64,000 nt of DNA. Source: a virus. Lineage: Duplodnaviria; Caudoviricetes. The stretch spans positions 32,001 through 96,000 of IMG/VR virus record IMGVR_UViG_2529292751_000006; one strand, 5' to 3'. The notes beneath the pieces were generated by a model. It worked only from the letters and a program-made list of their open reading frames with translations. It had not been told where the DNA came from and searched no databases. How positions within the stretch are numbered: the first letter of the stretch is position 1; each line of letters starts with the position of its first letter. Made by a program: the position numbers and the translations under genes. Below are positions 1,436 to 60,000 of this stretch, one piece after another.

Positions 1436-1449
1436 GTAATCACCTTTTC

Positions 1450-32374: not shown

Positions 32375-32388
32375 TTTATAACCTCCCT

Positions 32389-36243: not shown

Positions 36244-36262
36244 TTGTATTTTCTCCTTTCAT

Positions 36263-36294
36263 GAAGAAAAGCGACCATTCAAAGAATGAATCGC
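36263..36294 (-). terminator. Putative intrinsic terminator
   Basis: Minus strand GCGATTCATTC-TTT-GAATGGTCGC (one bulge, one G-U) followed by TTTTCTTC. Confidence 0.55.
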
Positions 36295-37344: not shown

Positions 37345-37357
37345 ATGTCACACCTCC

Positions 37358-37699: not shown

Positions 37700-37710
37700 C
37701 TTATTCCCTC

Positions 37711-40208: not shown

Positions 40209-40660
40209 ATTAAACCTCCTCCTGGTAATAAGTCATCAAAAAAGCCAGCAACACGTATTTTTAAATTGTTCCAAAATAGTTCTAATTGGTCTGGCTCTCT
40301 ATAATACGCTGTAGCTATTGGCATACTAGGATCACCATTAATAAATTGAATCCATACTCGGTCGTTCTTTACAAATCCTTTATCAATAACCCCTTGTGAA
40401 TAAACAAAACAAGGGACAGCACACAGGCGTTGAACCTTATTTCCCTGTAAGACATCTACATCTACTGTATGTCGCTCCCATATTTCTATTTTTCCACCTT
40501 TATGTCTACTGCAATTACAAATACCTCCTTCTGTTTTAGTGCCTGTATTAGGATGATAATCACTTACTTTCCCTATAAGACCATAAGAGCGTCGTTCTGA
40601 CGCTCTATCTGCTCCTTCATCTTGTAAATCTTTTCTTATTTGGTTTGTTTCTACACCCAC
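40205..40660 (-). CDS. Baseplate spike gp5/gpV-like OB-fold protein
   Basis: IGKVSDY...TVDVDV...VPC...DRVWIQFINGDPSMPIA fits the gp5/gpV OB motif (D.V.V.F..GD...P.I); GTG start with SD AAGGGGG. Confidence 0.7.
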   Translation of the reverse strand: MGVETNQIRKDLQDEGADRASERRSYGLIGKVSDYHPNTGTKTEGGICNCSRHKGGKIEIWERHTVDVDVLQGNKVQRLCAVPCFVYSQGVIDKGFVKNDRVWIQFINGDPSMPIATAYYREPDQLELFWNNLKIRVAGFFDDLLPGGGLM

Positions 40661-40675
40661 AAGAAATTCCCCCTT

Positions 40676-43600: not shown

Positions 43601-46600
43601 AATATTAATACCTGGCTCATCTGCTTGCCCGATGCCAAACGCATCCTTAATTTTATTCCACCAGCCATCATGTTCTTCATTTGTTAATCCAGTAGTTTGA
43701 TAGATATTCATATTGATTTCACCAACTGTTCGGCTATCTTTTCCAAACGTTGCTCCACCAATAAATCCACCGGCGACACCTCCAATAGCTGCGCCAATTG
43801 GTCCCCCAATTAGAAATCCTCCAGAAGCTCCTACTGCTGCTCCGCCAAAGAATCCTCCGAGTTCACCCCATCCTTGCGGAGCTTGCTGATGTCCAAAATG
43901 CATAATACCTAAACTATGATTTTGAAATTCATCATTAGATAAACCTGCCCAAAGGTTAGCAAAAAATCCTTTTGAATCAGTTAATAACTCATCTACAATT
44001 TCTGTTGGCTCTTGCTTAGAAAATAAAAATCCGCCTTCAGTGGTTTCATTCACATCTGCTCTAATTTTATTTGTTAATTCAATACCATCATCTTGCGCAA
44101 TCACTGTAATAGAAACCCCATTATTTTGAATAGAAGTTATTGTTCCATTCATAATCGTAGGCATACTCATAGGGTTTGAACCATATCCCATTCTGAAATG
44201 AATACGTGTACCTGTGCGTAGCATAATACTTTTATAATAATTTGCATTCCTATGACGAGAACGCTCTGCTTCTTTCGCTACAGCACCAGGCATAGTTAGC
44301 ATTTTAAAGACTTCACCCATACCGGTGTTTGTTAAATCCATTGCTTTTTCAGAATCATCTAACGTACCGTATATATTGCACATCTCTATCGCTAATGTAC
44401 TAGAAGCTTCTTTTCTACTGTTTGTATAAGTAATATCCATAACAGCTTGATAGTTAAAGAACTGATCTGACATTTTAACAGACCCCATATATTTCCCTTC
44501 ATCAATAAATGTAAGGAAGAATGTAGGAAATGCTCTTACTAACCTTCCACGCATATCATATTTCACCATGTCGTGTAACATGCCTGTATGTATTCGGTTA
44601 TCGTCTTTGAAGTCACTTTCTTTCATGTTTTGTTCTGGTTTTTTTGCATTTGGACCTGTGGTTTTAAAATCTTTCACAGGCAAGCCTTTTGTTTTTTCTT
44701 TAATTGTTTGATCAGACCATTCTTGATTATTAGAAGATGAATTCAACACTTTATTAATAATATCGATAACTTCTCTAGGTGGTCGTTTATTATCTTTTAA
44801 TAAATCAACATATTCTCGATCATAACCAAGATATAACATAATCACTCCAGCAAAGCGTACCTTTTGTTGGTCCCAACCATTATTGGCATTCAATCCAAAG
44901 CAAGCATATACATTTTCTTCGTTATACACTTTCTTATCACTGGCATTTGACTTGGCAAGCATTTGATTTAGTTCAGTGTAATATTGAGACATCTTACGTA
45001 CACCTTGTTCAACATTATATTCAATATTTTTACCAAGTAAATTTACATTAGAACCATACATCTTTCTGACTTTCATTATCCCAATGTATTCTCCATCTAT
45101 AGAGCCATCGTTATTTACATAGTATTTAAAGTTTTTATTCATCATAGTAGGAGAACTTGTTTTGCTATTTACTACTTTATCTTGCTTTGTATTTGTTCCT
45201 ACATCATAGAATTGTTTTAATTCAGAATCTAGAGCCTTAGCAAATGCAACTGTAAAGTTTTGATTAATATTAAACTGTTGTGATTTTTCCCTAATAAGAG
45301 CTTCTGCTTGAGCTACAGAAAGTTTACTTTTATCAACAAGTTCTTCTGGAATAGCGCTATAACTAACTTTATTCTTACCTACTGCATCTTCATATTCTTT
45401 CCTGCTATTCTTTAACTCTTCAGATGTAATGTCATTTACTTTCTCAATATTACCACCATTAATGCTTGCTTCTCCGCCTTTACCATCCCTTAATACTGTT
45501 TGATAATTTTGTTGTGCTGCATTAACCAAGTCCTCAAAGAATAACGTCCCTTTTTTATATGTAATAAAAAAGTCAGGATCTACAAACACACCGTTATTAT
45601 AATTTTCTACTTTAAAGCCAGCTTCTTCAACTTCTCCATAAGTAGGGAGCTCTAAATCAGGATATACTTCAGCTGCTGCAAAGAACTTACGTACAGCTTC
45701 TTCATAAACAGCTTGCTTTTCTGCATCCGCTTGAACGTTAGAACCTCCAAGGAATGATTTCAGTCCAGTCCATGCTTCTTTTGCTGCGGGTCGATCAGCA
45801 ACGAATTGAGCCCATCTATTTAGTGGATTATCACCTATTCCATCCTCAAACATAGTAGCTGGGTTTAAGCTTGTCAGAAGACTCAAGATCCCTTGGTTTT
45901 CATATTGATTTATATCCCACTTTGCAGTTTCAGATAACCACTTCACTTCATTCATTTTACGTTCTGCTCGATTGTATGCAATCATTGTCAAAGTGACCTC
46001 AAATACACCTGGCATTCCTTGCACAGTATTTGTTTGCATGTCTTCGATTGTTATATTTTTTATGCCAAATAATCTTGCGAGTTGACTATCAAACTCAAGG
46101 AAACCATTTGCCATTTCTTTGTGATATGTGCGAATCAGATAAGATGATCTTCTTATTAACGATTCTAAGCTTGCAATAGATTCCATGTCATGAGTAGTAA
46201 ACCTTGCCATGATTATTGTATCTTGAGAACCCATATACTGATGGGTAGGAGATTCATCATGTTGTAATTGAGCGGCAGTAATTGTGTTTTCAAACCCTAT
46301 AGATAAATCTGTTAGCGTTAAATTGGGTATATCCCATTCTTCATAGCCTACATCATATTCAAACATAGCTTTTTCATAAGTAGCATCTAAATCTTTATTG
46401 AATTGCTCCTCTAGCCCCTCTGCACCCCAAAAATCTTCTTTCTTTCCTTCGATATATTTCTTAATCATCTTTTTCTTATCAGAATTCCACTTTTTCATAT
46501 AAACCAAATCATCTTCAGCAGCTATTCTAAATTTAAAATTATTATCTAGCTCTTTATATAATGGCTCATAATAAGAGCGGAATGATTTTGCATTCTGAGG

Positions 46601-47095
46601 ATTTAGGTTTCTTTGATAATGCCATCTAAATAATGGCCAATCAAACATCTCATCGTATGTTCTATCCTCATCATCCGCAATATATGAATAAGGCTCAAAT
46701 GAATATAATTGTATTTGAGCTTGTAAAGTTTGCGGGAATCCTGGTGTTGTTTGAACTGTTACTCCAGATACAGTAACAGCATCAATCTTATGAATATCGT
46801 TTAAGTAAGTATTCTCTATCGGTAAAAATGGACACTTTTTTATTTGAGACAGTAAAGGTCTAAGCTCTTCATTCATATTATCTTTATCAGGGAAAAACAG
46901 AGTGACTTCAATCACTCTGTCAAAATACCCCGATTCTTTAGGTAAGCTATTTCTAGCACGTAGAATCTTTACACGTTCATTCTTCATTTGACGATGTATA
47001 CTAATTGCGGTAGGTGGTACAAAGAATGCTGTATCCCCTATACGCAAATGATGTTCAAGTAAGCTCCCATAAGGAGTTCTCTGCGCAACTGGCAT
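40676..47095 (-). CDS. Baseplate hub (gp27/gpD-like) and tail-associated lysin fusion with CwlT-like lysozyme and C-terminal M15-type Zn peptidase
   Basis: Hub motifs GTRIHFRMGYG...NGTIT...IAQDDG and MGDPSVKPFD...IKEVTQ...GYIT. Lysozyme-like ALTMQESGG...DVMQSSES...QSYNFGGGFI...YGDSKYVERVLRYY. M15 ITSGWR...WHGTGWAADL...HWNHLH. Confidence 0.85.
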   Translation of the reverse strand: MPVAQRTPYGSLLEHHLRIGDTAFFVPPTAISIHRQMKNERVKILRARNSLPKESGYFDRVIEVTLFFPDKDNMNEELRPLLSQIKKCPFLPIENTYLNDIHKIDAVTVSGVTVQTTPGFPQTLQAQIQLYSFEPYSYIADDEDRTYDEMFDWPLFRWHYQRNLNPQNAKSFRSYYEPLYKELDNNFKFRIAAEDDLVYMKKWNSDKKKMIKKYIEGKKEDFWGAEGLEEQFNKDLDATYEKAMFEYDVGYEEWDIPNLTLTDLSIGFENTITAAQLQHDESPTHQYMGSQDTIIMARFTTHDMESIASLESLIRRSSYLIRTYHKEMANGFLEFDSQLARLFGIKNITIEDMQTNTVQGMPGVFEVTLTMIAYNRAERKMNEVKWLSETAKWDINQYENQGILSLLTSLNPATMFEDGIGDNPLNRWAQFVADRPAAKEAWTGLKSFLGGSNVQADAEKQAVYEEAVRKFFAAAEVYPDLELPTYGEVEEAGFKVENYNNGVFVDPDFFITYKKGTLFFEDLVNAAQQNYQTVLRDGKGGEASINGGNIEKVNDITSEELKNSRKEYEDAVGKNKVSYSAIPEELVDKSKLSVAQAEALIREKSQQFNINQNFTVAFAKALDSELKQFYDVGTNTKQDKVVNSKTSSPTMMNKNFKYYVNNDGSIDGEYIGIMKVRKMYGSNVNLLGKNIEYNVEQGVRKMSQYYTELNQMLAKSNASDKKVYNEENVYACFGLNANNGWDQQKVRFAGVIMLYLGYDREYVDLLKDNKRPPREVIDIINKVLNSSSNNQEWSDQTIKEKTKGLPVKDFKTTGPNAKKPEQNMKESDFKDDNRIHTGMLHDMVKYDMRGRLVRAFPTFFLTFIDEGKYMGSVKMSDQFFNYQAVMDITYTNSRKEASSTLAIEMCNIYGTLDDSEKAMDLTNTGMGEVFKMLTMPGAVAKEAERSRHRNANYYKSIMLRTGTRIHFRMGYGSNPMSMPTIMNGTITSIQNNGVSITVIAQDDGIELTNKIRADVNETTEGGFLFSKQEPTEIVDELLTDSKGFFANLWAGLSNDEFQNHSLGIMHFGHQQAPQGWGELGGFFGGAAVGASGGFLIGGPIGAAIGGVAGGFIGGATFGKDSRTVGEINMNIYQTTGLTNEEHDGWWNKIKDAFGIGQADEPGINIGLFDKTVWDVLNICAAVGDDHIVAVHPFGFRNTIFSGKPYFPLHYDYTVDGEEVKGTALKPFRQFHVYDSATSIIDNSIETTEDNMYTVAVGVYMNEGEMDTTSPVFVDTNIWPEKQRVVNIDTTMNAQGIRMVQNIPLIGGLLNKLPKWYYDEGVAIKITAAGLRDYVKDMYDGYLTVMGDPSVKPFDQMWINDEFNSMAGPAEIKEVTQIMNHEQGYITLIKPDVVVVNTDRRAMTLLASAQALAGSALIAHTLRKKLRTSKYAGHLPIMNALWSSTKNRFDKMKERFNTSKLGQKFQDRVTGGKAPNGKEIAAADELRKGGVSSKDIARWSKNGLLEQLAKLTGEEGSNNLKNIFQNSKEFGYNSFKNVKMKAKGSTLIAKGSKSIGKVLKGGRGVVTALWTGAHIMAGPVGWLGLAIEALGVHIISSTIGEFIERWLFMRQACLISPLHKSGLEYTAGINGHKGSVIGDAPDIWKQLMTNDVSAFLLGFIGVDAWQFRNDDLQDQMGMKSDGPTEQPIDLNKMASSFYNTFRKQVPAFEKLTELYDKDRKAALEQINKRLELLGKRETKATYEEEKTTWEDWKNKIKNKITGWFKDLWDKVTSFFGNKDDGTCIPEGDVPTDGKAKGLSKYFDVIGPKIEAEAKVQGIGSYAEILKALTMQESGGNYHKLPDVMQSSESMGKPIGYIKNVDASIKQGVTHFKNQLARAKGDIKLVLQSYNFGGGFIDYCISRGGKYTYELAYSFSESMVKKVGRISRIPPGYGDSKYVERVLRYYDGNLPAGACKGGGAVGEGSGGASSCPLVTGKEGKSKYHLGSGGAPDVIDLHNLSGRNFGLTIVGGGGTSKVRKATGELLIEVAKLYKAATGDSFNITSGWRPGDNQWHGTGWAADLDTPNTMKVINGKMRFPNGTDKEKARKLAECCLKAGFRGLVFGDWDIIQEMNGKYGESAMQYDPKGHWNHLHCSYPLCKK

Positions 47096-47106
47096 AATCG
47101 TTCCTC

Positions 47107-50100
47107 CTAAACATTTTGTTGTACTTTATCTCTATACCAAATACGATTTAATTTTTGTGTATTATCATTATGATTCACTGTGATTCGTGTTGGTCCAGCG
47201 CTCATGCCTGTGTCCCTCATGCCTTGTGCAACCATATGAGACATTTGTTCTTTGTCCATGTTATTTCCGGATGCTTGAATACTAATAGATGCATTTTGAC
47301 TTGAATAACTGTCATTTGGCATTGCTATTGCTGGCACAGGTTCCTGTTTTCTTGATCCAGAATCTTTTACCTTTGAATCATCGTAATGCATTACAGGTTT
47401 TTCGCTACTAAGAATATTGTACGATGTTATGCCACCTAGAGCAAGTGCACCGCCCATGAACATTGCCTTTTTGGGACTCATGTTTTTTACTTTATCTAGT
47501 AAGCCACTAGCCTTCTCAGAAGCTTGTGTTACAGCACCTGAAACCCCTTCACTAGCTGCGTTTCGCATCTTATTGACAAAGGATTTCTTATTTTCATTTC
47601 TTTGTTGCATTGGAGTTCGATTTAACTCTGAAACATCTGTCATACCTGCTTGAGCACCATCTGGTAGTTCTATATTTTGATGCTTATAAAACATACCAAG
47701 CCCAGAATTAGAAGTAATCAATTCATCGGATGCTACATTGCCATGCATAATATCTAAAAGCTTTTGAATACCCATATCAGAAGATAAACCTGTACTAGTA
47801 CCTAATTTAAATCCATCAGATCGCAATCCTTTTTTCAGATTATTTAAAGCCATTGGAAGTTCTTCTGACACTTCATTTAAAAAGAAATCTTTGGCGAATT
47901 TGCCATCAAAGTAATCCTGATCAATGGATTTCGCTAAATTCCAGTTACTATTATAAATTGCATCTATCATTTCTAGTCCAGCTGGCTTTGCTCCGTGCTT
48001 TGCATCAATTAACTTTTGCTCTAAGCCACGACCAAATTCTTTTATCTTTTCATTAGCAGGTACATTATGACTAAACTCTTGATCTGCAACCTGTCGAAGG
48101 AATAAGTTTAAGTTAGATGCTCGTCCGATTGTCATTTTACCAATCTTGGAAGCTGTTTCTTCAGATGTATTAACAAGAGGCTTTCCAATATGCCCTGTGC
48201 CATCATCAGCTACACTTTGTAAACTCGGGCCGCTATATCGTCGCTCAGACAATGGATCATTAAGTCTTTCTCTTTCAGATACTAGTCTTTCGTTTTCTTT
48301 TCTTTCATGCTCACTCCATCTTCTTTCAAATTCAGTTTCTACCCGATTATGCGCCTGTTCCCATTCTTTTTGTACAGCTTTATCATCTATAACTGCAATA
48401 TGAGAATAGTCACCATCAGAGTCTGCATTCTGTAGCATAGAAGAAAATGAGGTTGTATGAATTTCACCAGGTTTTACATCATCACTCATAATTAGTTTTG
48501 TAAATTGCATAGCTCCATCATGGAATGTTGGATAACGAACGTTAGCAGTATACATATGCTTACCTGCTTCTAACCTTTCTTCTAATCCCATTCTTTGAGC
48601 CATGTCTTTTGAAATTGCAGTATATTGCCCTTCGCCATAGGTTTCTTGCAATTTCATTGTTGTATTTAAATCCATTAATTTAAACAAACCAGATGCAGAA
48701 GTGCTCATATTTGCTTTATACACTCCATCAAATAACATACCTTTGGAGGAAGTTAATTCTTTAAAAGAATGATCTACATATCGACTTACTGCCCCTTGTA
48801 GTTGACCATGAAATTGTTTCGCTTCTTCTATTGATGTAGCTTTTGTAACAGCATCCGCTTTTTTATAAATATTTGCGATATGATTTTGTAATTCTCGCAA
48901 ATGCACATCACCATTAGTAGCATCTAGATTTGTAAACGGAATAAATATCTTATCAATCTCTTTAGGTGTATTTTTACCATTAAGGTTAACCGTGATTTTC
49001 TGATTTTGACCATCATTACGCTTAACAGAAGGAAGCTCTAGCCAATATCCATGTTTATTTTTCAGTTCTGGACTTCCATATTTTTCAGCTAAACTTTCTA
49101 CTTTATTTTGACTAAATACCGTACCTCCATATAAAGCTTTATCTTTATATTGTTCTGGTAAGGAGTCAAATTCATTTGCTGATATCCCTTTGAATGATAG
49201 TTGGTCTTCTTTTCCAAGCTGACCTAAAGAGTGAATTAAATTTTGGGATTCAGTTAATTTACCTTCATTTTTCATCATCTCTTGATAGACATGCTCAAAT
49301 GTTTTTTCCATCCCTCGACCTTTTAAAACGCCCATTTCTCGATGGCCCCACTTAACACCATCATATGAACCGTGAATCGGTTGATTATGTTCATCAAATC
49401 CTAATACTGCTCTGCCAGAAGAATCTGTAGCTTTGCTGTAGTTCTCTACTTTTGACATGATTCCTTCTAAAATACCAATTCGAACACCTTCACGATTATG
49501 TAATCCGTATCGATTATTCTGCATACTAGTTACATTTTCAACATTAAATCCTTTTGATTGTAAATCTGAAAAGACCTTCTCAAAAGCATTTGTTTCTATT
49601 TTTGAATTTGAGCTATTATCAATAAATGCATTAATTCGGTCATCCCAAGCAAGACCGATATTTCCACTTTCAATAATATTGATTGCATTTTTTCGTTGGT
49701 TATTTTTCTTCATACCACCAACGTAATCTGATAATATTCGTGCTTCCCCTGACATCAACATACCAAAGTCCTTATGTTTTGCGACATCTGGATTAACAAT
49801 TGCTACAATATCTTTAGCACCTGCTACAGCTTCAATAAGTCTTCTATCCGCATTTGTGTCGGTCATCTTTTCCCCAGATAACATAAGTTTAAAAGCATTT
49901 GTCTTATGCTGAAGAATAATATCTTTATTACCTTGAATTCCATCAACAATCTTAGTATCATGAGTCCCTTCATAGCGAATAGCTTCTCTGTATCCATTGT
50001 CATGTATGCGATAACCTAATGTATCCCCAGGCTTTACTGTTTGATTTAACTCAGCACCTTGAAAATCCTCATGCCATTCAAATTGCTTACCTTTTTCAAA

Positions 50101-53100
50101 GCGCTTCTCTCCATTTACTTTTAATATCTCTGCAACATCGTCAGCCAATATTCCTTGTTGCTCATATAAGCGTGGAAGTTTTAAATAGTTAATTGAGCCA
50201 TCTGTGGTTATATATCCTAGCTCTTTTAATAGATTATTTCCTTGCTTATTTTCAAACATCTCATGAATACGACCCATGAAGTCCTCTTGTGTCATATAAG
50301 CAGTTTTCATATTGATGCTTACCTTATTTGTGTTGTTTAGATTATACTCGTATTCTCTTTGCCTTGGGGTTAGTAAAAGTCTTCTGCGATCTATTCCTTC
50401 ATATTTCCCTGATGCAAGATGCCCTTCTAGTTCTTTATCAATTAAATGAGCATTCATCGCTTGTACAGAGTTACCTCGGCCATGATTGAAGAAATGACCA
50501 TATGGTGTCACTTCACGGATATCTTGTAAAGACAATATCCCTTTTTCTACATGTGAATCTTTTAATCCAGAAGTATATAAATTTACCCCGAGTTTTTCTT
50601 GTGACCATTGTGGCATAAGCTGTAGCATTTCATAGGTTTTAGCCATTTTAATATCATCAAAGGATACGCCTGAACGGAGGACTTTCTCTCCTCTAGCATT
50701 TGTAGTAAAGACATCTTCATAGAAATCCTTATCATTTAATTTTATTAGATTCTTACCATTTTGATATCCATTATGATAAAGGTCTTCAATCATAGCATTT
50801 GCCATTTTCACGTGTGATTGCTTTAAGTTATCTGATTGGTTATTTGCAAAAACATACGTATCATTTGCACCTAAGTCCATGCTTCTTGAAATACCTGACA
50901 TACTTTCAGTTTCATTTCTTAGTGTTCGCCTAGCTCTTTTATTGGCTTCTTCATAATTGCCATCATTAGCCGCATCCATAATGTGAGACATTTTTTTAGC
51001 ATAGCCTTGAGCAATTTTTTCAGCACTAGATATCATTTTGACATTCTTTCCATCCAATACTGCATAACTATGAGCGTTTAATGTTAATCCATCTATCTTA
51101 TGAGTGCCATTGTCACTAATCAATGGCATTGTAAGTTCTAGTGCATTTGTCGGCTTAACCCCACGATGCAATTGATTTTGTACGCTTGTACTATAAGTAT
51201 TATCATATACAAATAGTTTCATTACTTCGTTTGGATCCATAGCCATAGTAATACTCTTTGTTGGGTCGTTCTTTTTTACACTAGCAATAATAGTCTCTAA
51301 TGCTTGCAAATTATTTGGGCGCAATCTAGAAAATCTCTCTCTATCAAGTATTTCTATAGATTTTGCAAGTTGCTCGCTTAACTCTAATTTCTTCCCCTTT
51401 ATAGCTTTGTCATGAAATGATAGGACTACATTTTCAGTATCCTGAATTGCTTGTTTAATAATTTCATTGTTTTCTAATAAGCTGAGCTTCTTTATATTTT
51501 CATTTCCGTTCATTGAGGGAACTGTCATTTCTTGTTCATATTTTCCATAGTTTCGTTTACGCATATCTATTGCCATTTCACCGGCAGTCGCCCACGGAGA
51601 ACCAGAACCCGTAATCAATTTTCTGTAAGTACCGCTTTGCTTTGTGTCTATTTTCCCTTGAGACTCCAAGTTATTTACTAAGTTAACTAACCGTTCTTTA
51701 ATTAAAGCTTGTCTATTATCGCCTTCCCCTACTCCTCTTTTTGCATATCCGTAAATATTGCTACGTGCTGAATCTATAGTTTCAAAATTAATAGAGCGAC
51801 TATCATTTACTTCAGCATCATAGAACGATAATTTATGCATTTCAAAATCTTTCAGTTTCCTAGCTTCTTCTGGTGACTCTACCCTATTAGAAATCAATTG
51901 TTGATAGGTCATTAAAGCTCGATCTCTTTTTTGATTTATTCCTCTTAATGCTGCCTGTCTTTCCTTCATATTTGTCTTATTTGCTGCACGTTGAATATCT
52001 GAAGAAAATGCTTCATCAATTTTTTTTACGGTTTCATCCAAGTATGGTAGTTCATCTATTAATCTCTTATGCATTTTAAAGAAAGCATCTTTTTCCGATT
52101 CATTGAATACATATTGCTTTTTCTCATCATCCCATAAACTATGAAAATCCATTTTTTTCATAAGATTATCTGTTGTAACAGTTCGTGATATTTCCTTCTT
52201 AGCTTGATTTCTGCTATAACCCTGCTGAATCAATGCTTCTATTTTTTCAGAGCGATTCTTTCCTGATCCTTCTAAATACTCTTGCATAATTTTTGCGTTC
52301 TCAAGCATTCGTTTTAAACCAGAAAAACCTTTTGTTCCTCTTTCTGATGTTTCACCATTAATAATATTTAATCCTTTTCCTGCTCCGTCTAAGCTGAAGA
52401 AACTATCATATTTTCTTCGTGCACGATCAGACGTGATATGATGCTTAATTTCTCTCTGCTTTTCGGCATTAATATTATCCCACGCATAAAATCGACTTTG
52501 AACAAAGTCTTGTAGTTCAGAAAAAGCATTCTCCCCTTTTCTTACAATATAGGAGTATTCATTTTTTTCTGGCTCGAAAAATCGAAAAGCTAATTTCTTC
52601 TCATTCTCATCACTCATATCATGCACACCTGCAAACTGATAGAAGGATTTCGAATTAATTACTGTCTTATTGAATCCATTTGATTTGTTAACAATGTTTC
52701 CTTCTTCATCAAACCCAACTTTAAATGATTCATCGCCATCTCGGTATGCCTGTACACCACCTGATGTAAATAAAACTTGTCCATTTCTCAATTCTGCATC
52801 ATTCCATGTCATCTTTGTTTCATGGAATTTAAATCCTTGTCCTGGTAGAGCGTGAGCAGACTCGAATTCATTCAAAATGTGCTTTCTAGATTTTGCAATT
52901 AATTCAGCTGTAGAATCTGTATCTACCGTGGCATTGTGAGCCGAATCCTGTGTATCGCTTCCCAATACATGTCGATATGCTGCTAATTTATCTTTTCCAT
53001 ATGGATTTAATTCAGGATTATATTCTGGATTCATCTGCTTTTTTAATTCGTTCGAATCCATATAGGCTGTTCGAATTACGTTAAGATAATCTAAATGCTT

Positions 53101-54024
53101 AACGTCTTTTGGTATTTCTAAATTTAATTTTTGAGCATATGCCTCCATAACTGGCATATCAAATGTATTACCATTGTAACTAACAAAGTATTTTTCTTTA
53201 TTATCATTCATTATTTTAATAATGGCTTGCATTGCTTCTTTAGGAGAATGACCTACTTTAGTCATATTAAATAATCCACTTTCCATATAAGGCATATACT
53301 GATCCATATGCTTTACAACCTTAGTGTGGTCAACTTGATCCCTATAATCAAATACAGATGTGATTATAGAGTGATGTTTAATTTCTCCGTTTGCATATGA
53401 GAATGGGACATCATCTCCCATTGCATAAGAAGAATAACGCATTAAATCTACTAGTGATCGTTTTTCCCATTCGCTTAAAGAATTATAGATATATTTATCG
53501 TGTTTGATTCCTTTTATCTTATCCTGAAGGTAATCTATTACATCATTATTTTGATGGACAATACCATTGAATCCGGTCCCTTTGATTAGATCACCATTTT
53601 TATCATACTCATTAAGAGAAATTTCCGATATACCATAAGGCTTTATACGATCTTGACTATCACCATATGTTTCAATATCAAATACATAATGATTAGATGT
53701 TTTCGCAAAGGATTGGAATTGCTCTAAATTCTCTTGCCCTCTACTTAATGATGTAGCATGAAAGAGCTGCATAACTCTTCGCCCGTCATATAATACAGGC
53801 TCTTTCTTCCGGATTAACTCCTCTATTTCTTCTCTCATTGAGCTCTTATCACGATTCAATATAGCAACGTGATTTGCTATTCTCTTTTCATACTTACGAT
53901 CAACATTATGAGTTGAATATAACGCATTACTGGTAGCAACAACTTTAAAATCCTTTTGTTTTGGGAGAGCAACACTTGCCCTTAAATCTGCGGGCAAGCT
54001 TGCATCGAATTGATTCACATCCAT
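47107..54024 (-). CDS. Putative single-chain two-barrel (beta plus beta-prime-like) virion RNA polymerase with N-terminal DEDDh 3'-5' exonuclease domain
   Basis: FDIET / YNGNTFD / HNATVD (ExoI-III). Then colinear GVKWGHREM, LQGAVSRYVD, LTSSKGMLF, RYPTFH (48520..48537) and NADSDGD (48409..48429). Hydrophobic segment near the C-terminus. Confidence 0.75.
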   Translation of the reverse strand: MDVNQFDASLPADLRASVALPKQKDFKVVATSNALYSTHNVDRKYEKRIANHVAILNRDKSSMREEIEELIRKKEPVLYDGRRVMQLFHATSLSRGQENLEQFQSFAKTSNHYVFDIETYGDSQDRIKPYGISEISLNEYDKNGDLIKGTGFNGIVHQNNDVIDYLQDKIKGIKHDKYIYNSLSEWEKRSLVDLMRYSSYAMGDDVPFSYANGEIKHHSIITSVFDYRDQVDHTKVVKHMDQYMPYMESGLFNMTKVGHSPKEAMQAIIKIMNDNKEKYFVSYNGNTFDMPVMEAYAQKLNLEIPKDVKHLDYLNVIRTAYMDSNELKKQMNPEYNPELNPYGKDKLAAYRHVLGSDTQDSAHNATVDTDSTAELIAKSRKHILNEFESAHALPGQGFKFHETKMTWNDAELRNGQVLFTSGGVQAYRDGDESFKVGFDEEGNIVNKSNGFNKTVINSKSFYQFAGVHDMSDENEKKLAFRFFEPEKNEYSYIVRKGENAFSELQDFVQSRFYAWDNINAEKQREIKHHITSDRARRKYDSFFSLDGAGKGLNIINGETSERGTKGFSGLKRMLENAKIMQEYLEGSGKNRSEKIEALIQQGYSRNQAKKEISRTVTTDNLMKKMDFHSLWDDEKKQYVFNESEKDAFFKMHKRLIDELPYLDETVKKIDEAFSSDIQRAANKTNMKERQAALRGINQKRDRALMTYQQLISNRVESPEEARKLKDFEMHKLSFYDAEVNDSRSINFETIDSARSNIYGYAKRGVGEGDNRQALIKERLVNLVNNLESQGKIDTKQSGTYRKLITGSGSPWATAGEMAIDMRKRNYGKYEQEMTVPSMNGNENIKKLSLLENNEIIKQAIQDTENVVLSFHDKAIKGKKLELSEQLAKSIEILDRERFSRLRPNNLQALETIIASVKKNDPTKSITMAMDPNEVMKLFVYDNTYSTSVQNQLHRGVKPTNALELTMPLISDNGTHKIDGLTLNAHSYAVLDGKNVKMISSAEKIAQGYAKKMSHIMDAANDGNYEEANKRARRTLRNETESMSGISRSMDLGANDTYVFANNQSDNLKQSHVKMANAMIEDLYHNGYQNGKNLIKLNDKDFYEDVFTTNARGEKVLRSGVSFDDIKMAKTYEMLQLMPQWSQEKLGVNLYTSGLKDSHVEKGILSLQDIREVTPYGHFFNHGRGNSVQAMNAHLIDKELEGHLASGKYEGIDRRRLLLTPRQREYEYNLNNTNKVSINMKTAYMTQEDFMGRIHEMFENKQGNNLLKELGYITTDGSINYLKLPRLYEQQGILADDVAEILKVNGEKRFEKGKQFEWHEDFQGAELNQTVKPGDTLGYRIHDNGYREAIRYEGTHDTKIVDGIQGNKDIILQHKTNAFKLMLSGEKMTDTNADRRLIEAVAGAKDIVAIVNPDVAKHKDFGMLMSGEARILSDYVGGMKKNNQRKNAINIIESGNIGLAWDDRINAFIDNSSNSKIETNAFEKVFSDLQSKGFNVENVTSMQNNRYGLHNREGVRIGILEGIMSKVENYSKATDSSGRAVLGFDEHNQPIHGSYDGVKWGHREMGVLKGRGMEKTFEHVYQEMMKNEGKLTESQNLIHSLGQLGKEDQLSFKGISANEFDSLPEQYKDKALYGGTVFSQNKVESLAEKYGSPELKNKHGYWLELPSVKRNDGQNQKITVNLNGKNTPKEIDKIFIPFTNLDATNGDVHLRELQNHIANIYKKADAVTKATSIEEAKQFHGQLQGAVSRYVDHSFKELTSSKGMLFDGVYKANMSTSASGLFKLMDLNTTMKLQETYGEGQYTAISKDMAQRMGLEERLEAGKHMYTANVRYPTFHDGAMQFTKLIMSDDVKPGEIHTTSFSSMLQNADSDGDYSHIAVIDDKAVQKEWEQAHNRVETEFERRWSEHERKENERLVSERERLNDPLSERRYSGPSLQSVADDGTGHIGKPLVNTSEETASKIGKMTIGRASNLNLFLRQVADQEFSHNVPANEKIKEFGRGLEQKLIDAKHGAKPAGLEMIDAIYNSNWNLAKSIDQDYFDGKFAKDFFLNEVSEELPMALNNLKKGLRSDGFKLGTSTGLSSDMGIQKLLDIMHGNVASDELITSNSGLGMFYKHQNIELPDGAQAGMTDVSELNRTPMQQRNENKKSFVNKMRNAASEGVSGAVTQASEKASGLLDKVKNMSPKKAMFMGGALALGGITSYNILSSEKPVMHYDDSKVKDSGSRKQEPVPAIAMPNDSYSSQNASISIQASGNNMDKEQMSHMVAQGMRDTGMSAGPTRITVNHNDNTQKLNRIWYRDKVQQNV

Positions 54025-54038
54025 AAAAACACATCCTT

Positions 54039-57000
54039 CTACACATAACGATTTGTATATTTTTTTAAGTGATTTTCTATTTCATCTCTTCTATCCTCGT
54101 TGTAAGAAAGGTCTACATATGTTTCTGAACCATTGGAAGGAGAAACATTAACTTGTACATTTCTTAAACCAGATCCTTGTAAAATATTCACGAGGTTTTG
54201 CTTTAAGATATTAAATCCTTGGAAATTAGATGTTGCCGCCTCTCCAGATATAGTATTCGATCCATCTTCATGTAAATCTGGTACATAACGGGAGGCTTCT
54301 ATACTATCGTCCCAAAAATTAAAATCACTTTTATCTATTCCAGCTTCTTCAACTGTTTTTACTTTAATATCATTTAAATCATACTCAGGACGCCATCCTT
54401 CCCAAGTCCAATCTGGAATATCATATTTTTGCATATAGTATTCTAATGGTTTCTGTTCCTCTACTCCATATCCCCAAATCGCTTTATAAATGCGCTTTTG
54501 ATTTTCAGGAATCAATCTTAGTATCTCTTCTTGTTCTTTTGAATTTGCTTCTGCAAAGTCTGTGAAAAACCATTTATCTTTATAAGGGAATGCTTTCATG
54601 ACTTGCATACGGTCACCTAAAGGATCAATACCATACAAAGTAGTATCACGTTCTTCTTTATACTGAAGCGCTTGTAAAAAGGCATCTGGTAAATACATTT
54701 CATTTTTATTTTCTGATATTGTTTCTAACTCTGCATTTATTTCTTTTCTTTTGTCTTCCCAACCTGTTGGTTGCTCTAAATATAGTTGCTTTTTCTCTTC
54801 CTCTAGCTCTTTTCTTTTTTGCTTTGTTAAGTTTTTTTGATCATCAATTACTTGAACAATATCCTCTACATCATATCCAGTTTGATGAGCTATTTCTTCT
54901 CTCGCATTTTGATATAACCCTTCATATTTGAGATATTTTAGGACATCAAAATACTCATTAATATCATTCTCCATACGTCTTCGCTCAGGTATCCATTTCT
55001 CCCCATGCTCTTTTTCATAGTTTTTATAAAACATATTTGACCCTAAACCAAATAGTCCTCCTGCAATAGACATAAGCTTTGTTGGTCGGCCGCCTTTCAG
55101 AAACAAACGCCCAAGAACAAGCCCTGTTGTTGCTCCAGCTGTCATTGACCATAATGGACTTTCAAACCTACCTAGTCCTTGTAGCGTAGGGGCAATATAA
55201 TCATTCAACATGAAATTATCCCATGTCGCCCAGTCTTTTCCGTATATTTGATCACGTTCGTATTCTTCTGCAGCTGTACGAACTTGTAAAAACTTAGTAT
55301 TTAGAGGTGTACTGGCATGGGCTATTGTCTCCCAACGTTCCCCTCGCTTAATTTCTTGAGGTGTAAATCTTGCATGAACACCTGTAGCTGAAAAGTCGTT
55401 CTGATTTTCTACCATTTCACCACGTCTGATAATATCCATATTAATATTACCTATCTCATTGAATATGACAGCTCTCATTGTTCCGTATGTATCTTTTGAA
55501 ATGCGCTGTGTAGGGTCTTCGGAAATACCTATTTCAACCTTATCACCTATCTTGAAGTATTGCTGCAATACACCTGTAGCTTTTTTTCTATATTCCATAC
55601 CAGCCATGCGAATTGGTTGATCGCCATACTCTTTTGTTAGAAATGTATAATCATCTAAAAACTTAGTCACGGTAACTTCATCTGTGACGATATCATTTCC
55701 TTTAAATCGATATGGGGTAAATTCAAATTTCTTTTTTCGTTTTGAAACTTGTTTTCGAATTTGAGTAGCTTCTTTTCGTAAATCTCCCTCTTCTAAGTTA
55801 TCCATAAGATACTGACTCCAAAATTTATACTCATCGGACCATGGGGCGACATCAGACAAGATTTTAAACTTATCAAAAGAACCATATGTACCCGTTTCAT
55901 CTGAATGCAATTCATTTAAAGATTCATAAGCTTCACCAGGCAGACGATATTCTCCATTAGGAAGTTTACTATAAGGGTCACCCACTTGAAAGTTAATAAA
56001 GTAATCCGAGCCGGGCATCCAATCAGGCATTGTGTTACGTATAGGATTATATGTATCTAATTGACCGCTATCTCTTCTAATAAAACGACGACCAATCTCA
56101 GATAAACTTCCACCTAATGATCCTAGTTCTGATTCCCAAAAACGATTAGATGCATTATAAGCTGTATCAGCCATCTGTATAACGGTTTTCCCTCCATATG
56201 GATCACGGCCAAGCATCTCATCATTGGCAAGCCACTTATATACACCCAATGGCTCTGACCAGTTTTCTATTGCTTCTTGCGTTAGCCAACTAGCTGATCT
56301 TGGATCCTCTATATTCTGCATTTTACGATACATAATATCCTGCTTATAAGCATACTCTTCATCCATCATTGCTCTTGGCTTTGTACTAACTTGAATATTA
56401 TAACTTGGATTTGCAACAGATAAAGCGACTCCGTTCATCTCACTTCCCTTAGGAGCATCTGTACTGGCGATTTCAAACATCTTATTCATAGGAATGTTTT
56501 CTTTAGCAATATTCGCTGGAACATACATTGCTTGTCCTGTATCTGTATCTTGTGCAACATAAGCTCCTGTGGGACTCCCTTTTTCATCTAGCTCATCACT
56601 TACAAAATATTTGGCAGCATAGTCTTGTCCCATAGCATGGTACGCTTGCTTTTCTTGTTCTATATTAAATAGAGCTTCATTGTTAATATCCGATGAAGCT
56701 GCTTCAATTGAGGCTCCGCCATACTGATCTGTTGTTGCTAATACGTCATTTTTAACTCGTCCGGCAGGCGATACCACAGTACGAATAGGAGATTCAGGTC
56801 TGCTTCCTAATTTACTTGTTTCATTATCATAGATAAGAGTAGGACTCCCCCAATATTCAGGATGCATATCTTGAGTAGGTTTTACTAGCTTGCCTATTGT
56901 TGCGTTACCAATATCACCAAGAACCATTGTGTTAGGATTAAACAATTGTCCTGTTAACATATAAGGGCGGTCAGAATAATGTTTCTTTTCCCACCAATAC

Positions 57001-60000
57001 GGATCACGAGTTCCTAATACAAAAGACAGTCCACCTAATGGATTCTCTAATGTAGGCAGTAAACTATTACTCCAGTATTCTTCACCTGTTGCGTTAGTAT
57101 TCGTCCATTCATAATCACTGTGTGCTTTACGGAAACTGTTTGGAGCAAACTCCATAATACGATCCCCACGATATGCGGATTTAGAACCCATAAACCACCA
57201 TCTAGATTTGCGAACTTCCTCTACACCATTATAGATATCATCTAATGTTTCATCATAATCCATTGTGTCTTCTTCACGAATTGATGCTTTCCCTAAGAAA
57301 GGAGCAAATACATTATTCACAACATCACCTAATCCAATCGGACCAACACCAGGCATATGTATACTAGGCATAGCTGCCCAATGGTCTATCCCCGGCTTTA
57401 ACATTCTTTCACGTTTGATATTATATATATCTTCCGGTGTTCTTGATGCTGCTCTATCTAAGCGATCATTCGCTTTATAGTTTTCCCATCGTTCATCTAA
57501 TCCCTCACCAGTCCATTGGTCTGTTTTCCAGTCTGCATATTTTACCGCTTCAACTCCTGCATACATAGGAAAGATACGCTTCCACATCAAATTATTAAAT
57601 ATTTGAAAAGAGCTACCCATAGATTTGTCTGAAAATCCTAATCCCGCATTTCCAAGGGAGTCTTGTAAACGAAACATCGGATAATAAGTACCAAATAAGC
57701 CAAAAGTCGTAACGTCCTCCATATTACTACGACCAGTAAACGGGCTAACTTGTGACCAAATATCTCCCACTGACTGAGCTCTTTCCTTAGTACTTGAATT
57801 TAAGCCAAAGATTGTGCTTAAATGATTCGTCATTCCAGATTTATTTATTGCTACATATTCATCTTCTACTTGGTTAATAGGGCGTGACTCTGAATACCTC
57901 TCCCATACTGGATTTGTTTTGCGATACATTTCACGCATACTATCCTGAAAATCCTTGTTATCTTGGAATAAGCGACTTGTACGATTTAATACAGCGTTAG
58001 TATTTTTTTGAACGTCAAACATCTGAGAGCGAAATACACTATAATTCAATAAAAACTCTGCGTTCTGTAGATCATCTTTTAGTATTTTCCCATTATCATA
58101 CAGCCCTTTTAATTCACTACGAAAATCCTCTGCTAAATCAGTATATGGCTTCATCTCTGGACGTCGCATTAATCTCTCTCTCATAAGATACATGCTTGTT
58201 TGTTGATGGATAACATCATATCCAGTTTGCAATTGCGTATGATGACCTAGTATAGGATTACTCTCACCGATAGGTGTCTTTTTATTAAGAATCTTATCTG
58301 GATTTCTTTCAAATTGCTTATATAAATTAACTAGTTCTGTATGAGCTGTTGTGCTGCTATTTACTTCTTTTTCACCTATACGACGAAACAACTTTACGAT
58401 ATCATCTTCTTCTGAAAAGTTAATATTCTTATCTTTTATAAAATCCCTAACATCTGAAGGTAAGTCATCTTTCAGTTGATTTAAGACCCTTGGATTAAAG
58501 CCTTTTGTATTTAATTTGAAGTACTTATTCATTTGATATAAAGATGCAGCATCTTCGAATCCATCTGTAAAAAGATTTTTAATTCGATTTCGATCCCAAT
58601 CTTTGTTCAAAAACTTAGTAAATACACTAAATCCTTGATTATAAAATGAATCTGTATCTTGTCTCCCTACATCAAAAAAGCTAGCAATAGGATTTCTAGG
58701 AGTTTCATTATCTGTCATTATGCCAGAAATATGTCTTTGCATTTTTCCTAATGTACCAAATTGAGAGGATGTGAGATACATGTCTCGCTTTGGATTTAAA
58801 ATATTTAGTGCCGTACTATTATTAATAGCATCATAATCATATAGACTTACAAATTTACCATTTACATAGACAACTTCTTGATTCAACGCTTCTGTTGCTT
58901 CTATCCCTCTATGTCCATTTAAGCTAGATTGAATACTTCCACGTTGGAATATCTTAAAACTTGCCTGTTCTTTTGCAGTTTTTATATTCATAATGTCCCT
59001 TAAATGAGCTAGTCCACCAGGTAGCGTATTTGCCCACCATTCTGCCTGATTTCGCTTCATATTACTAAAAACTTTATAGTCCATCAAGCTTTCGACTTCA
59101 CCATTCTTTGTAACAAGATATAAATTCTCATCAAAAACCGTCTCTTTAAAACTCTTATTATATTGAAGCACATCATCTATTTGAGCCTTTAAATTTGCAT
59201 TCATTTTAACTTTCCCAGCATCATGTAAGCCTAATACATCTCCAACTGTTGCTTGTTTATGACCAATGACTGCACGTTTAAGGGGATTATCTTTTTTTGT
59301 AATGTCTTGCATTTGTTGAGCAGTAAACTCACGAAGCTTTTGCTGCATTCCTTCTACTAATCTTTTTGCATCAGTACTTGTTTGAATGAAATCATGTCGT
59401 TGATATTTTTCTCTGGTTTGTTTCAATACTCCCCATATTTCTGAATGATCTACGCCTTTTCCATGGTTCTTTAATAATAATTTTAATTGCTCATCTGAAC
59501 CAAAATCGAGCATCCCTAGTTTCCCTTTAGATAAAGCCTTATCCAATTCATCCATTAATGGTTGATTGCCTTTAAAAAGATGATGCTTTCTCATATCATC
59601 CATAACTGCGGCAAATCGAAACCCTTCTTGTATATGAAATGGGACTTCACCTTTATAATTACCAGGACCATCGATACGACCAATCAAATTATCCTTATGT
59701 CGTAAGTATCGTTCTATATCCATTTCACGACTGTTAATAACATTAGCTTGCTTCTTTTTTTGTTCACTTAAAATTTCTTTTCTTCTTTTAACAAAATTAC
59801 TTTTCATTACTTTCATTCGATCAACGGTTAGTTTATCTTCACCTACAACTAATCGTCCTTGATTATCTAACGTTTCTTTTGCAGCACGATAGACTGCTTT
59901 TCCTTCTGTATTAAGGAATTGACCAATTTTACGAAATGCACCTGTTCTGTGTCCTACTGTTAATGCGCCTAGTGTTGCAGCAACCCCTATTCCAAGCTTT

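Follow-up and report, generated by a model that had tools for sequence, protein, structure and literature searches.

By combining fold prediction, structure searches and residue conservation, we define a family of previously unannotated single-chain RNA polymerases (RNAPs) of jumbo myophages of Bacillales, in which a multisubunit-like two-barrel core is joined to a DEDDh exonuclease and a tail-slot module. The member described here is the product of a 2305-residue open reading frame (ORF) in a 64,000-nucleotide stretch of viral DNA, hereafter the window, which covers positions 32,001 to 96,000 of the 120,785-base IMG/VR record IMGVR_UViG_2529292751_000006, a 'provirus' with an estimated completeness of 61%. 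The window has a GC content of about 34%, and every long ORF in it lies on the minus strand. The protein comprises, in this order, an exonuclease, a conserved middle region, a beta-like module, a beta'-like module and a C-terminal tail-slot module. Since an RNAP core of the cellular type is found here in one chain with a nuclease domain and among tail genes, the phage probably injects its own transcription enzyme through the tail. The explanation that best accounts for the data as a whole, a multi-domain giant of the tail module whose RNAP core is ejected as a transcriptase, is in our judgement a probable one.

Fold and active site of the predicted polymerase core

Two overlapping parts of the protein were modelled with AlphaFold on homolog alignments and with no template: model 1 covers residues 1000-2100 (29-sequence alignment; mean pLDDT 83.6, pTM 0.78) and model 2 residues 1588-2305 (49-sequence alignment; pLDDT 73.4, high to about residue 2120 and low after it). 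Residue conservation was read from a MAFFT (FFT-NS-2) alignment of 56 sequences with identities down to about 20%, made up of the window protein, 47 database homologs (P0002-P0049 less one), the weak giants P0056-P0059, two genome loci and gp095 of phage vB_BceM_WH1 (WH1). The family thus has at least 56 members. The ORF and the features of its polymerase region are as follows.

47107..54024, minus strand: whole ORF, 2305 aa, about 261 kDa (translation, 0 internal stops)
49264..51027, minus strand: beta/Rpb2-like module with the predicted beta-type barrel, residues 1000-1587 (model 1, Foldseek, VIA)
47632..49224, minus strand: beta'/Rpb1-like module, residues about 1601-2131 (model 2, Foldseek, VIA)
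48349..48711, minus strand: predicted beta'-type double-psi beta-barrel (DPBB), residues about 1772-1892 (isolated DPBB domains align)
48409..48537, minus strand: putative catalytic signature R1830-Y-P1832 ... N-A-D1868-S-D1870-G-D1872 (56-member alignment)
49867..49890, minus strand: candidate beta-side lysine pair K1379 ... E1385-K1386, in FKLMLSGEK (56-member alignment)
47983..48165, minus strand: candidate bridge helix, residues 1954-1983, and trigger-loop-like helix-loop-helix, residues 1988-2024, with K2009-H2010-G2011 (model 2, alignment)

The fold matches of the models lie far above the described background. In a Foldseek search of the Protein Data Bank (PDB) with model 1, the best 50 of 500 matches (all E<=0.001) are RNAP chains, headed by the second-largest subunits of Pol I, Pol III, vaccinia virus and African swine fever virus (ASFV) at E 1.5e-7 over about 486 columns. 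Aligned by VIA, residues 1000-1587 match Pol I A135 (5n5y_B; Z 16.5, rmsd 4.7, 419 residues aligned) and E. coli beta (6vyx_AA; Z 16.2, 449 aligned, chain residues 455-1298). A wide VIA scan of 48,161 representative chains, which is independent of Foldseek, brought up the beta-type subunits of the non-virion RNAPs (nvRNAPs) of AR9 (7s00_C, Z 15.2) and phiKZ (7ogp_C, Z 14.0) for model 1.

For model 2 the listed Foldseek matches (best 50 of 500, E<=0.001) are all largest subunits, among them Pol I A190 (6rrd_A, 8.2e-8), E. coli beta' (7ypb_D, 1.0e-7) and the AR9 nvRNAP (7s01_d, 2.5e-7). Ranks 1-9 of the wide VIA scan are likewise held by RNAP largest subunits, with Z 10.9-13.5; VIA gives Z 13.5 for 7ob9_A (406 aligned), Z 13.0 for Sulfolobus RpoA' and Z 11.7 for M. 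tuberculosis beta' (6edt_D, 422 aligned). At lower ranks stand gp96 of Thermus phage P23-45 (Z 8.6 over 194 residues) and P74 gp62 (Z 7.4). Within this module the barrel region aligns with isolated DPBB domains, namely the designed DPBB 7dww_A (Z 10.2, rmsd 2.0, 84 aligned) and CDC48 N-domains (Z about 10). Identity in the structural alignments with multisubunit RNAP subunits is 10-15%.

In the wide scan, single-chain enzymes align over both halves of model 1: QDE-1 with Z 10.4 (417 aligned, model residues 47-1094), P74 gp62 with Z 9.0, maize RDR2 with Z 8.2, phage phi14:2 gp66 with Z 6.7 and P23-45 gp96 with Z 6.5 (313 aligned). The two barrels are therefore predicted in their canonical mutual arrangement. 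That archaeal PolD is not among the best 50 matches of either wide structure search shows little.

The motifs of the core follow each other along the chain in the order expected for beta and then beta'. On the beta side these are YEQQGILADD (residues 1287-1296, 50137-50166), VKPGDTLG, FKLMLSGEK..AIVNP (residues 1378-1412) and GVKWGHREMG (residues 1556-1565, 49330-49359); on the beta' side, LQGAVSRYVD (residues 1742-1751, 48772-48801), LTSSKGMLF, RYPTFH at R1830 and NADSDGD at N1866. R1830, P1832, D1868, D1870, G1871 and D1872 are each present in 56/56 members, and a regular expression for R-x-P followed by D-x-D-G-D 25-60 residues on likewise finds all 56; in the window protein R1830 lies 38 residues ahead of the first Asp, D1868. 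The motif is more than chance, given its presence in every member down to about 20% identity together with the RNAP fold matches. E1288, E1385, K1386 and T1388 are also invariant, and K1379 and R1562 occur in 55/56.

By motif order, K1379 and K1386 would be the equivalents of Rpb2 K979 and K987. Eight residues are described as invariant across two-barrel RNAPs, including Rpb1 R446/P448 and Rpb2 D837 (Ruprich-Robert and Thuriaux, PMC2919709), and the conserved residues of the family appear to fit seven of them. Following the barrel, as the bridge helix and trigger loop do in beta', model 2 has long helices (H367-396 and H401-420, then a loop and H428-437 in model numbering). The beta' structural alignments extend through this stretch, residues 1954-2024, and G1967 and K2009 are found in 56/56 members, Q2003 in 54, H2010 in 52 and G2011 in 50. 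These residues may thus be a bridge helix and a trigger loop.

From the models, residues about 1000-2131 are predicted to be a complete single-chain two-barrel RNAP core, beta-like and then beta'-like, with DxDGD as its metal-binding loop. That the protein has a two-barrel polymerase fold with an intact active site appears nearly certain on this basis, and that it is an active polymerase appears very likely; large parts of beta', such as the clamp and the jaw, are probably reduced. A first-pass annotation, made from the sequence by a model, had already proposed a single-chain RNAP, beta and then beta'-like. The ORF and every peptide string that it quoted are in the translation at the places it gave, as is its spacing of 36 residues between R-x-P and DxDGD (R1830 to N1866). 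Fold prediction, structure search and residue conservation agree with its proposal: the AlphaFold and Foldseek check that it suggested yielded a double-psi barrel and beta/beta' matches, and DxDGD and RxP are conserved in 56/56 members. Its view that the beta side is the weaker match is reversed at the structural level, where Z is 15.6-16.5 for beta vs 11.5-13.5 for beta'.

Some results speak against a polymerase. Pfam searches gave no RNAP family, either for the whole protein (E<=0.01) or for six pieces of it (E<=10), and the only PHROG match of the ORF at E<=0.001 is to an exonuclease family and none is to a polymerase, so that the polymerase assignment is drawn from predicted structure and motifs. 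The YonO/RdRP family PF05183 has no match in the 120-kb record at E<=1, in a search that does detect gp99 of Bacillus thuringiensis phage 0305phi8-36 (E 1e-20) and the genes co-resident with relatives of the ORF (see below). The Asn of NADFDGD, a ribose-contacting (ribose-sensing) residue in RNAP, is conserved in only 24/56 members: the residues found at position 1866 include N (24 members), K (13), R (10), A (4) and E (3), N being that of the window protein. For the eighth invariant, Rpb2 D837, the beta side offers two acidic candidates, E1288 (in YEQQG) and E1385, each present in 56/56.

Exonuclease domain, middle region and C-terminus

The regions outside the core are the following.

52870..53727, minus strand: putative DEDDh 3'-5' exonuclease, residues about 100-385, with ExoI D116-x-E118, ExoII N284..F288-D289 and ExoIII H363-x4-D368 (Pfam, alignment)
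51028..52869, minus strand: conserved middle region, residues 386-999 (mean column identity 0.41, 8 columns >=95% conserved)
47410..47469, minus strand: glycine-rich hydrophobic segment, residues 2186-2205, AMFMGGALALGGITSYNIL (sequence; low pLDDT)
47110..47244, minus strand: conserved C-terminal module, residues 2261-2305, ..NDNTQKLNRIWYRDKV.. (alignment)

The exonuclease domain was overlooked in the first-pass annotation. In Pfam, the N-terminal 400-residue piece matches RNase_H_2 (28.0 bits, cut-off 22) and RNase_T (27.1 bits, cut-off 24), and more weakly, under the cut-off, DNA_pol_B_exo1/exo2. Among PDB sequences, phmmer and the family profile matched only the exonuclease region of family-B polymerases, the profile reaching the ExoII region of the archaeal enzymes at E 6e-4. 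The motifs of DEDDh (DnaQ-like) exonucleases are known as ExoI DxE, ExoII (N)xxxD and ExoIII HxxxxD; the corresponding residues D116, E118, N284, D289, H363 and D368 occur in 55/56 members, the exception being a 1873-residue protein that lacks the N-terminus. As far as sequence can tell, residues about 100-385 are a DEDDh 3'-5' exonuclease with its catalytic set intact. Since the catalytic residues are invariant or nearly so, both enzyme domains are under purifying selection. We know of no other RNAP with a fused DEDDh exonuclease, and full-text literature searches found none.

This domain bears on the specificity of the enzyme, which might be a polymerase of another kind with an exonuclease proofreader, either a PolD-like DNA polymerase/primase or a QDE-1/RDR-like RNA-dependent polymerase. 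The resemblance of the N-terminal domain to the proofreading exonucleases of family-B DNA polymerases and to DnaQ/RNase T, its uniqueness among the RNAPs known to us, the variable Asn of NADFDGD and the presence of QDE-1 (Z 10.4) and plant RDR2 (Z 8.2) among the structural matches would all agree with such a specificity. The clearly best matches, however, are DNA-dependent RNAP subunits of cells, poxviruses, ASFV, AR9 and phiKZ (Z 13-16.5), and the phage has its own Pol III alpha, DnaB-type helicase and primase, which makes a different specificity quite improbable.

The middle region, residues 386-999, is conserved to the same degree as the enzyme domains; it has no Pfam match at E<=10, and residues 400-1000 gave no usable match in the ESM Atlas. 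As the structural alignments with beta start only near Rpb2 residue 400, one may speculate from its position that this region corresponds to the N-terminal lobes of beta. Residues 2132-2260 are poorly conserved and modelled with low confidence except for the segment 2186-2205, which aligns with segments of 0305phi8-36 gp146 and WH1 gp095. The last 45 residues are the most conserved block of the whole protein (mean column identity 0.56; D2287 in 55/56 members, N2288 and W2296 in 52/56), and akin C-termini are found in WH1 gp095 and in gp034 of phage KLEB27-3.

Tail slot, family and proposed delivery

The ORF lies in the tail module, the second of three giant genes.

61529..63973, minus strand: tail tube protein and two paralogs (BLASTP to 0305phi8-36 ORF140/141/142 and WH1 gp099-101)
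60135..61459, minus strand: two tail chaperonin genes, 261 aa and 160 aa (BLASTP to 0305phi8-36 ORF143/144 and WH1 gp097/098, E 1e-9 to 1e-26)
54039..60131, minus strand: upstream giant 1, 2030 aa, homolog of 0305phi8-36 gp145 and WH1 gp096 (BLASTP)
40676..47095, minus strand: downstream giant 3, 2139 aa, homologous to the baseplate hub and containing a lysozyme-like domain and a tape-measure-like stretch (BLASTP, PHROG, Pfam)

In the direction of transcription, as read from Pfam and PHROG scans and from BLASTP against annotated phages, the order is terminase, capsid, a 973-residue ORF (sheath-sized, without a Pfam match) and three tail-tube paralogs, then the two tail chaperonins and giants 1, 2 (the 2305-residue ORF) and 3, and finally baseplate gpJ-like proteins, fibre/adhesin proteins, primase, DnaB-type helicase, ribonucleotide reductase and Pol III alpha. 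At the level of these matches, the layout is that of 0305phi8-36, a jumbo myophage of Bacillus thuringiensis. The element that hosts the ORF is best explained as a jumbo myophage or prophage of the 0305phi8-36/BtI1 type from the Bacillus cereus group.

The stop of giant 1 and the start of the 2305-residue ORF are separated by 14 nt, and the end of the latter and giant 3 by 11 nt. Ribosome-binding-like sequences precede the starts of the giant ORFs, that of giant 2 being GAAGGA, 9 nt upstream. From this spacing and these sequences, the three giants form one operon. Giant 1 matches 0305phi8-36 ORF145 with 35% identity over 641 residues (E 4e-102) and WH1 gp096 with E 1e-131 in BLASTP, and nothing in Pfam or PHROG scans; gp145 of 0305phi8-36 is a virion protein by mass spectrometry. 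Near the N-terminus of giant 1 lies a glycine-rich hydrophobic segment (residues 42-60), and its C-terminal region, with ..WEGWR..DIKVK.., is conserved in 0305phi8-36 gp145, WH1 gp096 and ME3_35. Giant 3 matches the 0305phi8-36 hub ORF147 (gp147) with E 2e-62 in BLASTP, the tape-measure family phrog_167 at residues 1035-1540 (E 7e-10) and Pfam Lysozyme_like at residues 1806-1921 (E 2e-33). A glycine-rich hydrophobic segment lies at 1086, within its tape-measure-like stretch, and its C-terminal H..D...HxH-like string resembles M15-type peptidases by eye only, Pfam reporting no such domain.

The first-pass annotation had placed the gene between the tail chaperones and the baseplate hub, which synteny with 0305phi8-36 and WH1 in BLASTP bears out, with the gp145-like giant also intervening. 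Its naming of this place as the tape-measure position holds in that the slot is so annotated in relatives, but the tape-measure-like sequence itself (phrog_167) is in the next ORF. The C-terminal hydrophobic segment that it reported exists, at 2186-2205; it is only moderately hydrophobic and glycine-rich, with every 19-residue window below a Kyte-Doolittle mean of 1.5. The precedents it named are all documented: YonO (PMC5467207), phi14:2 gp66 (PDB 6vr4) and P23-45 gp96 (PMC10770324).

In 0305phi8-36, the slot of giant 2 is occupied by ORF146 (40624-48237), a 'hypothetical tape measure protein' found in virions by mass spectrometry. The family resembles gp146 only in the C-terminal ~120-130 residues (BLASTP E 0.056; hhalign E 0.009 over 122 columns); a DxDxD motif is absent from the whole of gp146, and so is any detectable similarity to the enzyme domains. 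The BtI1/BwK1 relatives have a gene of similar length in the slot, of which only the last 60 residues align with gp146 and which was interpreted as a tape measure that diverges rapidly (Hardies et al. 2007, PMC2147016); the accessible text of that paper has no mention of a polymerase or exonuclease in it. The ORF thus shares with gp146 and the BtI1/BwK1 gene the slot, a similar length and the C-terminal module, and its alignment with gp146 is confined to the C-terminus, as that paper reports for BtI1/BwK1. Because gp146 shares only these ~130 C-terminal residues and is without DxDxD, the slot seems to hold exchangeable cargo on a constant C-terminal module.

The slot also invites the view that the giant is primarily a tail tape measure and its polymerase-like region an inactive structural relic. 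Its positional equivalent in 0305phi8-36 is so assigned and is of similar length to its 2305 residues, and the BtI1/BwK1 gene was treated in the same way. Against this, hardly any of the 56 members, down to about 20% identity, departs from the catalytic residues of either enzyme domain, the models show mixed alpha/beta globular folds and not a long helical rod, and the sole tape-measure PHROG match (phrog_167) is in the next ORF. We therefore consider a relic very improbable. As for a possible additional role in measuring tail length, no tape-measure family of Pfam or PHROGs matches the 2305-residue ORF, and the 1300 residues that were modelled (1000-2305) are globular alpha/beta.

A word-indexed search found 28 homologs of 2226-2647 residues and 30-93% identity, many of them on 205-225 kb contigs, in the Bacillus cereus group, Priestia, B. 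subtilis, B. licheniformis, B. atrophaeus and B. velezensis, labelled 'ribonuclease H-like domain-containing protein' or 'hypothetical'. With residues 1000-2100 as query, HMMER found 40 proteins at E<=0.001 among 1.84 billion cluster representatives. The 29 matches at E<=1e-30 are all giants of 1873-2729 residues, the rest being short fragments or weaker giants, and at this sensitivity no stand-alone gene for the polymerase module is therefore seen. Distant members of the family occur in phage isolates. WH1 gp095, a 2515-residue 'virion structural protein', is a full-length homolog (hhalign E 4e-39, 2000 columns). Gp034 of KLEB27-3 (vB_BauM_KLEB27-3, a phage of Bacillus australimaris), a 2434-residue 'structural protein', occupies the same slot, with a tblastn match limited to residues 96-549 (E 5e-6); RYPT..ADxDGD is present in both proteins. 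The chaperonins and the three-giant array recur on contigs of about 195-198 kb in assemblies of Oceanobacillus profundus and Alicyclobacillus shizuokensis, and the array likewise in WH1 and KLEB27-3, so that the position from chaperonins to hub is kept in 5/5 family loci (window, WH1, KLEB27-3, Oceanobacillus and Alicyclobacillus). Occurrence is sporadic: 1/246 species genomes matched in the taxonomic family of the Oceanobacillus host, and a pattern scan of genome contigs gave 2 loci.

Megablast of the ORF against 50,697 phage records gave 0 matches, tblastn of the protein matched 3 records (residues 94-551 only, 21-24% identity), and tblastn of homolog P0013 gave 0 matches, in a collection that may lack records close to the window's genome. 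Sequence-level kinship of the family was ruled out by hhalign for 0305phi8-36 gp145 (E 0.13), WH1 gp096 (E 0.16), ME3_36 (E 0.31), WH1 gp094 (E 0.42) and 0305phi8-36 gp99 (E 0.52). At the structural level, model 1 has its best matches among predicted viral structures in those of an uncultured siphovirus 'minor tail protein' (E 1.3e-17, 1226 columns), of an unnamed entry (E 8e-17) and of an Acinetobacter phage ME3 protein (E 5.5e-9). These matches are leads which suggest that the tail-slot RNAP arrangement may be widespread. From its matching length, the ME3 entry of BFVD would be ME3_36 (vB_AbaM_ME3, 33172-37983), a 1603-residue 'hypothetical protein' that carries REP..GGDHDQD; in this 0305phi8-36-like jumbo phage of a Gram-negative host the slot order is chaperonin, gp145-like protein, ME3_36 and hub. 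A further BFVD structure, that of the 1677-residue hypothetical protein ORF65L (225-5258) of Microcystis phage MaMV-DC, has RTP...NEGDADGD and matches the RNAP model with E 2.7e-6 over 803 columns, with no evident tail module around it.

Some relatives encode a second polymerase. Both genome-borne relatives examined (2/2) have a PF05183 YonO-like gene above the cut-off on the contig of the giant. These YonO-type ORFs, of 1134 and 1155 residues with GGADNDGD, lie on the ~195-kb contigs of the Alicyclobacillus and Oceanobacillus relatives (G002:C7:153992-158386 and G001:C61:83566-87405, respectively). This suggests a two-polymerase programme or cascade of a tail-slot RNAP and a YonO-type RNAP. 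The idea, prompted by the lack of PF05183 in WH1 and its presence in 0305phi8-36, that the two are mutually exclusive was rejected, since both genes stand on one contig in the Oceanobacillus and Alicyclobacillus relatives. Phage 0305phi8-36 has been credited with a YonO-like RNAP (Iyer et al. 2021, PMC7824862); this protein (ABS83659.1) was rejected as a homolog of the ORF, being gp99, a different gene near the right genome end.

The mechanism that we propose starts in the virion. The C-terminal module and the two tail chaperonins would place the protein in the tail lumen by the hub, probably in an extended or partly unfolded state. Sheath contraction would expel it through the hub, ahead of or together with the DNA, while the lysozyme-like domain of the hub would open the wall. 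Having refolded at or in the cytoplasm, the enzyme would transcribe the first phage genes without the host polymerase, and in some relatives it would probably hand over to the separate YonO-type polymerase encoded on the same contig, as in P23-45. The most likely substrates of the exonuclease would be 3' ends, either of RNA or of the DNA as it enters. Packaging in the virion and ejection appear likely, from the slot kept in 5/5 loci, the shared C-terminal module, the 'structural protein' labels and the precedent of P23-45.

Several points tell against this scheme. Virion presence and ejection are read from indirect evidence, and the 'structural protein' labels of the homologs carry no stated basis. 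The putative similarity to gp146 is weak (hhalign probability 4.5%) and covers about 130 residues only. As a general estimate, a folded RNAP core is too large for the lumen of a tail tube, and storage would therefore require unfolding. WH1 is without a PF05183 gene and has a sigma-70-type gene, and the two-polymerase scheme is therefore not universal. Neither a sigma factor (PF04542) nor a second RNAP was found in the 120-kb record, which is about 61% complete, and for that reason the remaining transcription programme of the phage is unseen.

The polymerase could also be active and unpackaged, made late and acting in the infected cell as a late or accessory transcriptase, its place in the operon being a historical accident. 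The family is without proteomic support, its homology to the virion protein gp146 is weak and short, and a large globular enzyme fits a tail tube badly. This reading is nevertheless unlikely: the position between chaperonins and hub is kept in 5/5 family loci, the genes lie 11-14 nt apart in a single operon, and the most conserved block of the protein is the C-terminal module common to its slot-mates. In ME3, too, the slot encodes a protein with RxP..DxDxD, although hhalign shows no homology to the family at sequence level (E 0.31). Late synthesis would bring late transcription little benefit if the enzyme did not travel on to the next cell, and P23-45, crAss-like and N4-like phages package such enzymes (PMC10770324).

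A more elaborate form of the ejection reading, which we regard as rather unlikely, is a membrane-anchored 'entry machine'. Here the C-terminal module would keep the protein at the contraction channel, the exonuclease would trim the linear genome at its leading 3' end as it enters and so expose a single-stranded template for a sigma-free start, and transcription would help to pull the ~200-kb genome in. In a bolder variant, the exonuclease would proofread the product of the polymerase itself. If true, the entry machine would be a coupling of polymerase and nuclease unknown for any RNAP.

Comparison with known systems and other genes of the window

An ejected tail-slot transcriptase has its closest counterpart in concept in P23-45 gp96, and the protein is a further form of that kind. 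P23-45 gp96 is a virion two-barrel RNAP fused to a tail tape measure (Chaban et al. 2024, PMC10770324; PDB 8h2m/8h2n), and it transcribes the pre-early genes, among them the gene for a second RNAP (PMC10770324). The two proteins share a single-chain two-barrel RNAP with DxDGD inside a giant of the tail module that also has a hydrophobic segment, and both systems have a stand-alone second RNAP elsewhere (gp64 in P23-45 vs the YonO-like PF05183 gene in 2/2 relatives of the ORF). The fold match is real (Z 8.6 over 194 residues; Z 6.5 over 313), whereas no sequence similarity was detected and the ORF is closer to multisubunit subunits (Z 13-16.5). The polymerase occupies the C-terminal two thirds of the ORF vs the N-terminus of gp96, and the ORF, unlike gp96, has a fused DEDDh exonuclease and no metallopeptidase domain. 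Of the P23-45-type features the ORF has the slot, the hydrophobic segment and the conserved C-terminus; the peptidoglycan-degrading and tape-measure-like sequences are not in the same protein but in the next gene, which has the only tape-measure PHROG/Pfam match (phrog_167). The host viruses differ as well, being a contractile-tailed jumbo phage of Bacillales vs a Thermus siphophage.

Multisubunit RNAPs, together with the split AR9/phiKZ enzymes, give the best structural matches to both halves of the ORF. About 420-450 residues of beta (E. coli 455-1298) and about 400 of beta' align, and the order of RxP, DxDGD, lysine pair, bridge-helix-like and trigger-loop-like elements agrees. In the ORF, unlike these enzymes, one chain carries the beta half and, after it, the beta' half; its pieces lack matches to Pfam RNAP families at E<=10, its family does not keep the Asn of NADFDGD, and the record shows neither alpha or omega counterparts nor a sigma factor. 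Judged by the models, the protein is closer to multisubunit-type enzymes than to the single-chain enzymes known from phages. Fusions of beta and beta' of the NCgl1702 type exist among RNAPs (PMC2919709).

YonO of SPbeta is a single-chain RNAP (Forrest et al. 2017, PMC5467207). Like the ORF, YonO and 0305phi8-36 gp99 (PF05183; PMC5467207, PMC2147016) are single-chain two-barrel proteins with DxDGD from Bacillus phages. They belong, however, to another family, as PF05183 is absent from the record at E<=1 and hhalign against gp99 gives E 0.52; YonO-type genes are about 800-1200 residues long and lie in early/replication regions, whereas the ORF is a giant in the tail module. The crAss-like phi14:2 gp66 (PDB 6vr4) is a virion-packaged giant single-chain two-barrel RNAP flanked by giant virion proteins; it matches the ORF weakly in structure (Z 6.7), comes from a podovirus-like virion, and has DFDxD and no exonuclease.

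Full-text literature searches found no paper that reports a polymerase in this Bacillus tail giant. PMC10770324 treats 23 RNAP families, and its supplementary text tables, in files that are possibly incomplete, have no genome accessions of WH1, KLEB27-3, ME3, MaMV-DC or 0305phi8-36. A virion RNAP in the tail lumen or tape-measure slot has been experimentally shown only for Thermus siphophage P23-45 and relatives (2024). With the present finding, the corresponding slot of contractile-tailed jumbo phages of Bacillales, an ancient lineage unrelated to those, is seen to hold a fused beta-beta' enzyme much closer to the cellular type. The finding also bears on the evolutionary link of single-chain to multisubunit RNAPs. 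If active, the enzyme would offer an experimentally tractable system, because cultivable Bacillus phages carry the family, for the storage and delivery of a ~130-kDa polymerase core through a tail. It would also bear on sigma-free initiation by a minimal fused beta-beta' enzyme and on the role of a DEDDh exonuclease on a transcription enzyme.

Three further observations concern other parts of the window. A likely carbohydrate-binding fibre or adhesin is the 2392-residue virion protein of 15709-22887 (minus strand), which carries PA14/GLEYA (residues 1851-1949) and Ig-like domains. Among the fibre genes, a 165-residue ORF (25108-25605, minus strand) matches Peptidase_C92 (permuted papain-like amidase) and also a PHROG labelled enoyl-CoA hydratase-like. 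Four tandem phrog_22713 paralogs of 587, 426, 398 and 448 residues with Hoc-like Ig domains (30611-36243, minus strand) lie in a stretch of raised GC content, 0.39-0.41 vs about 0.34 elsewhere.

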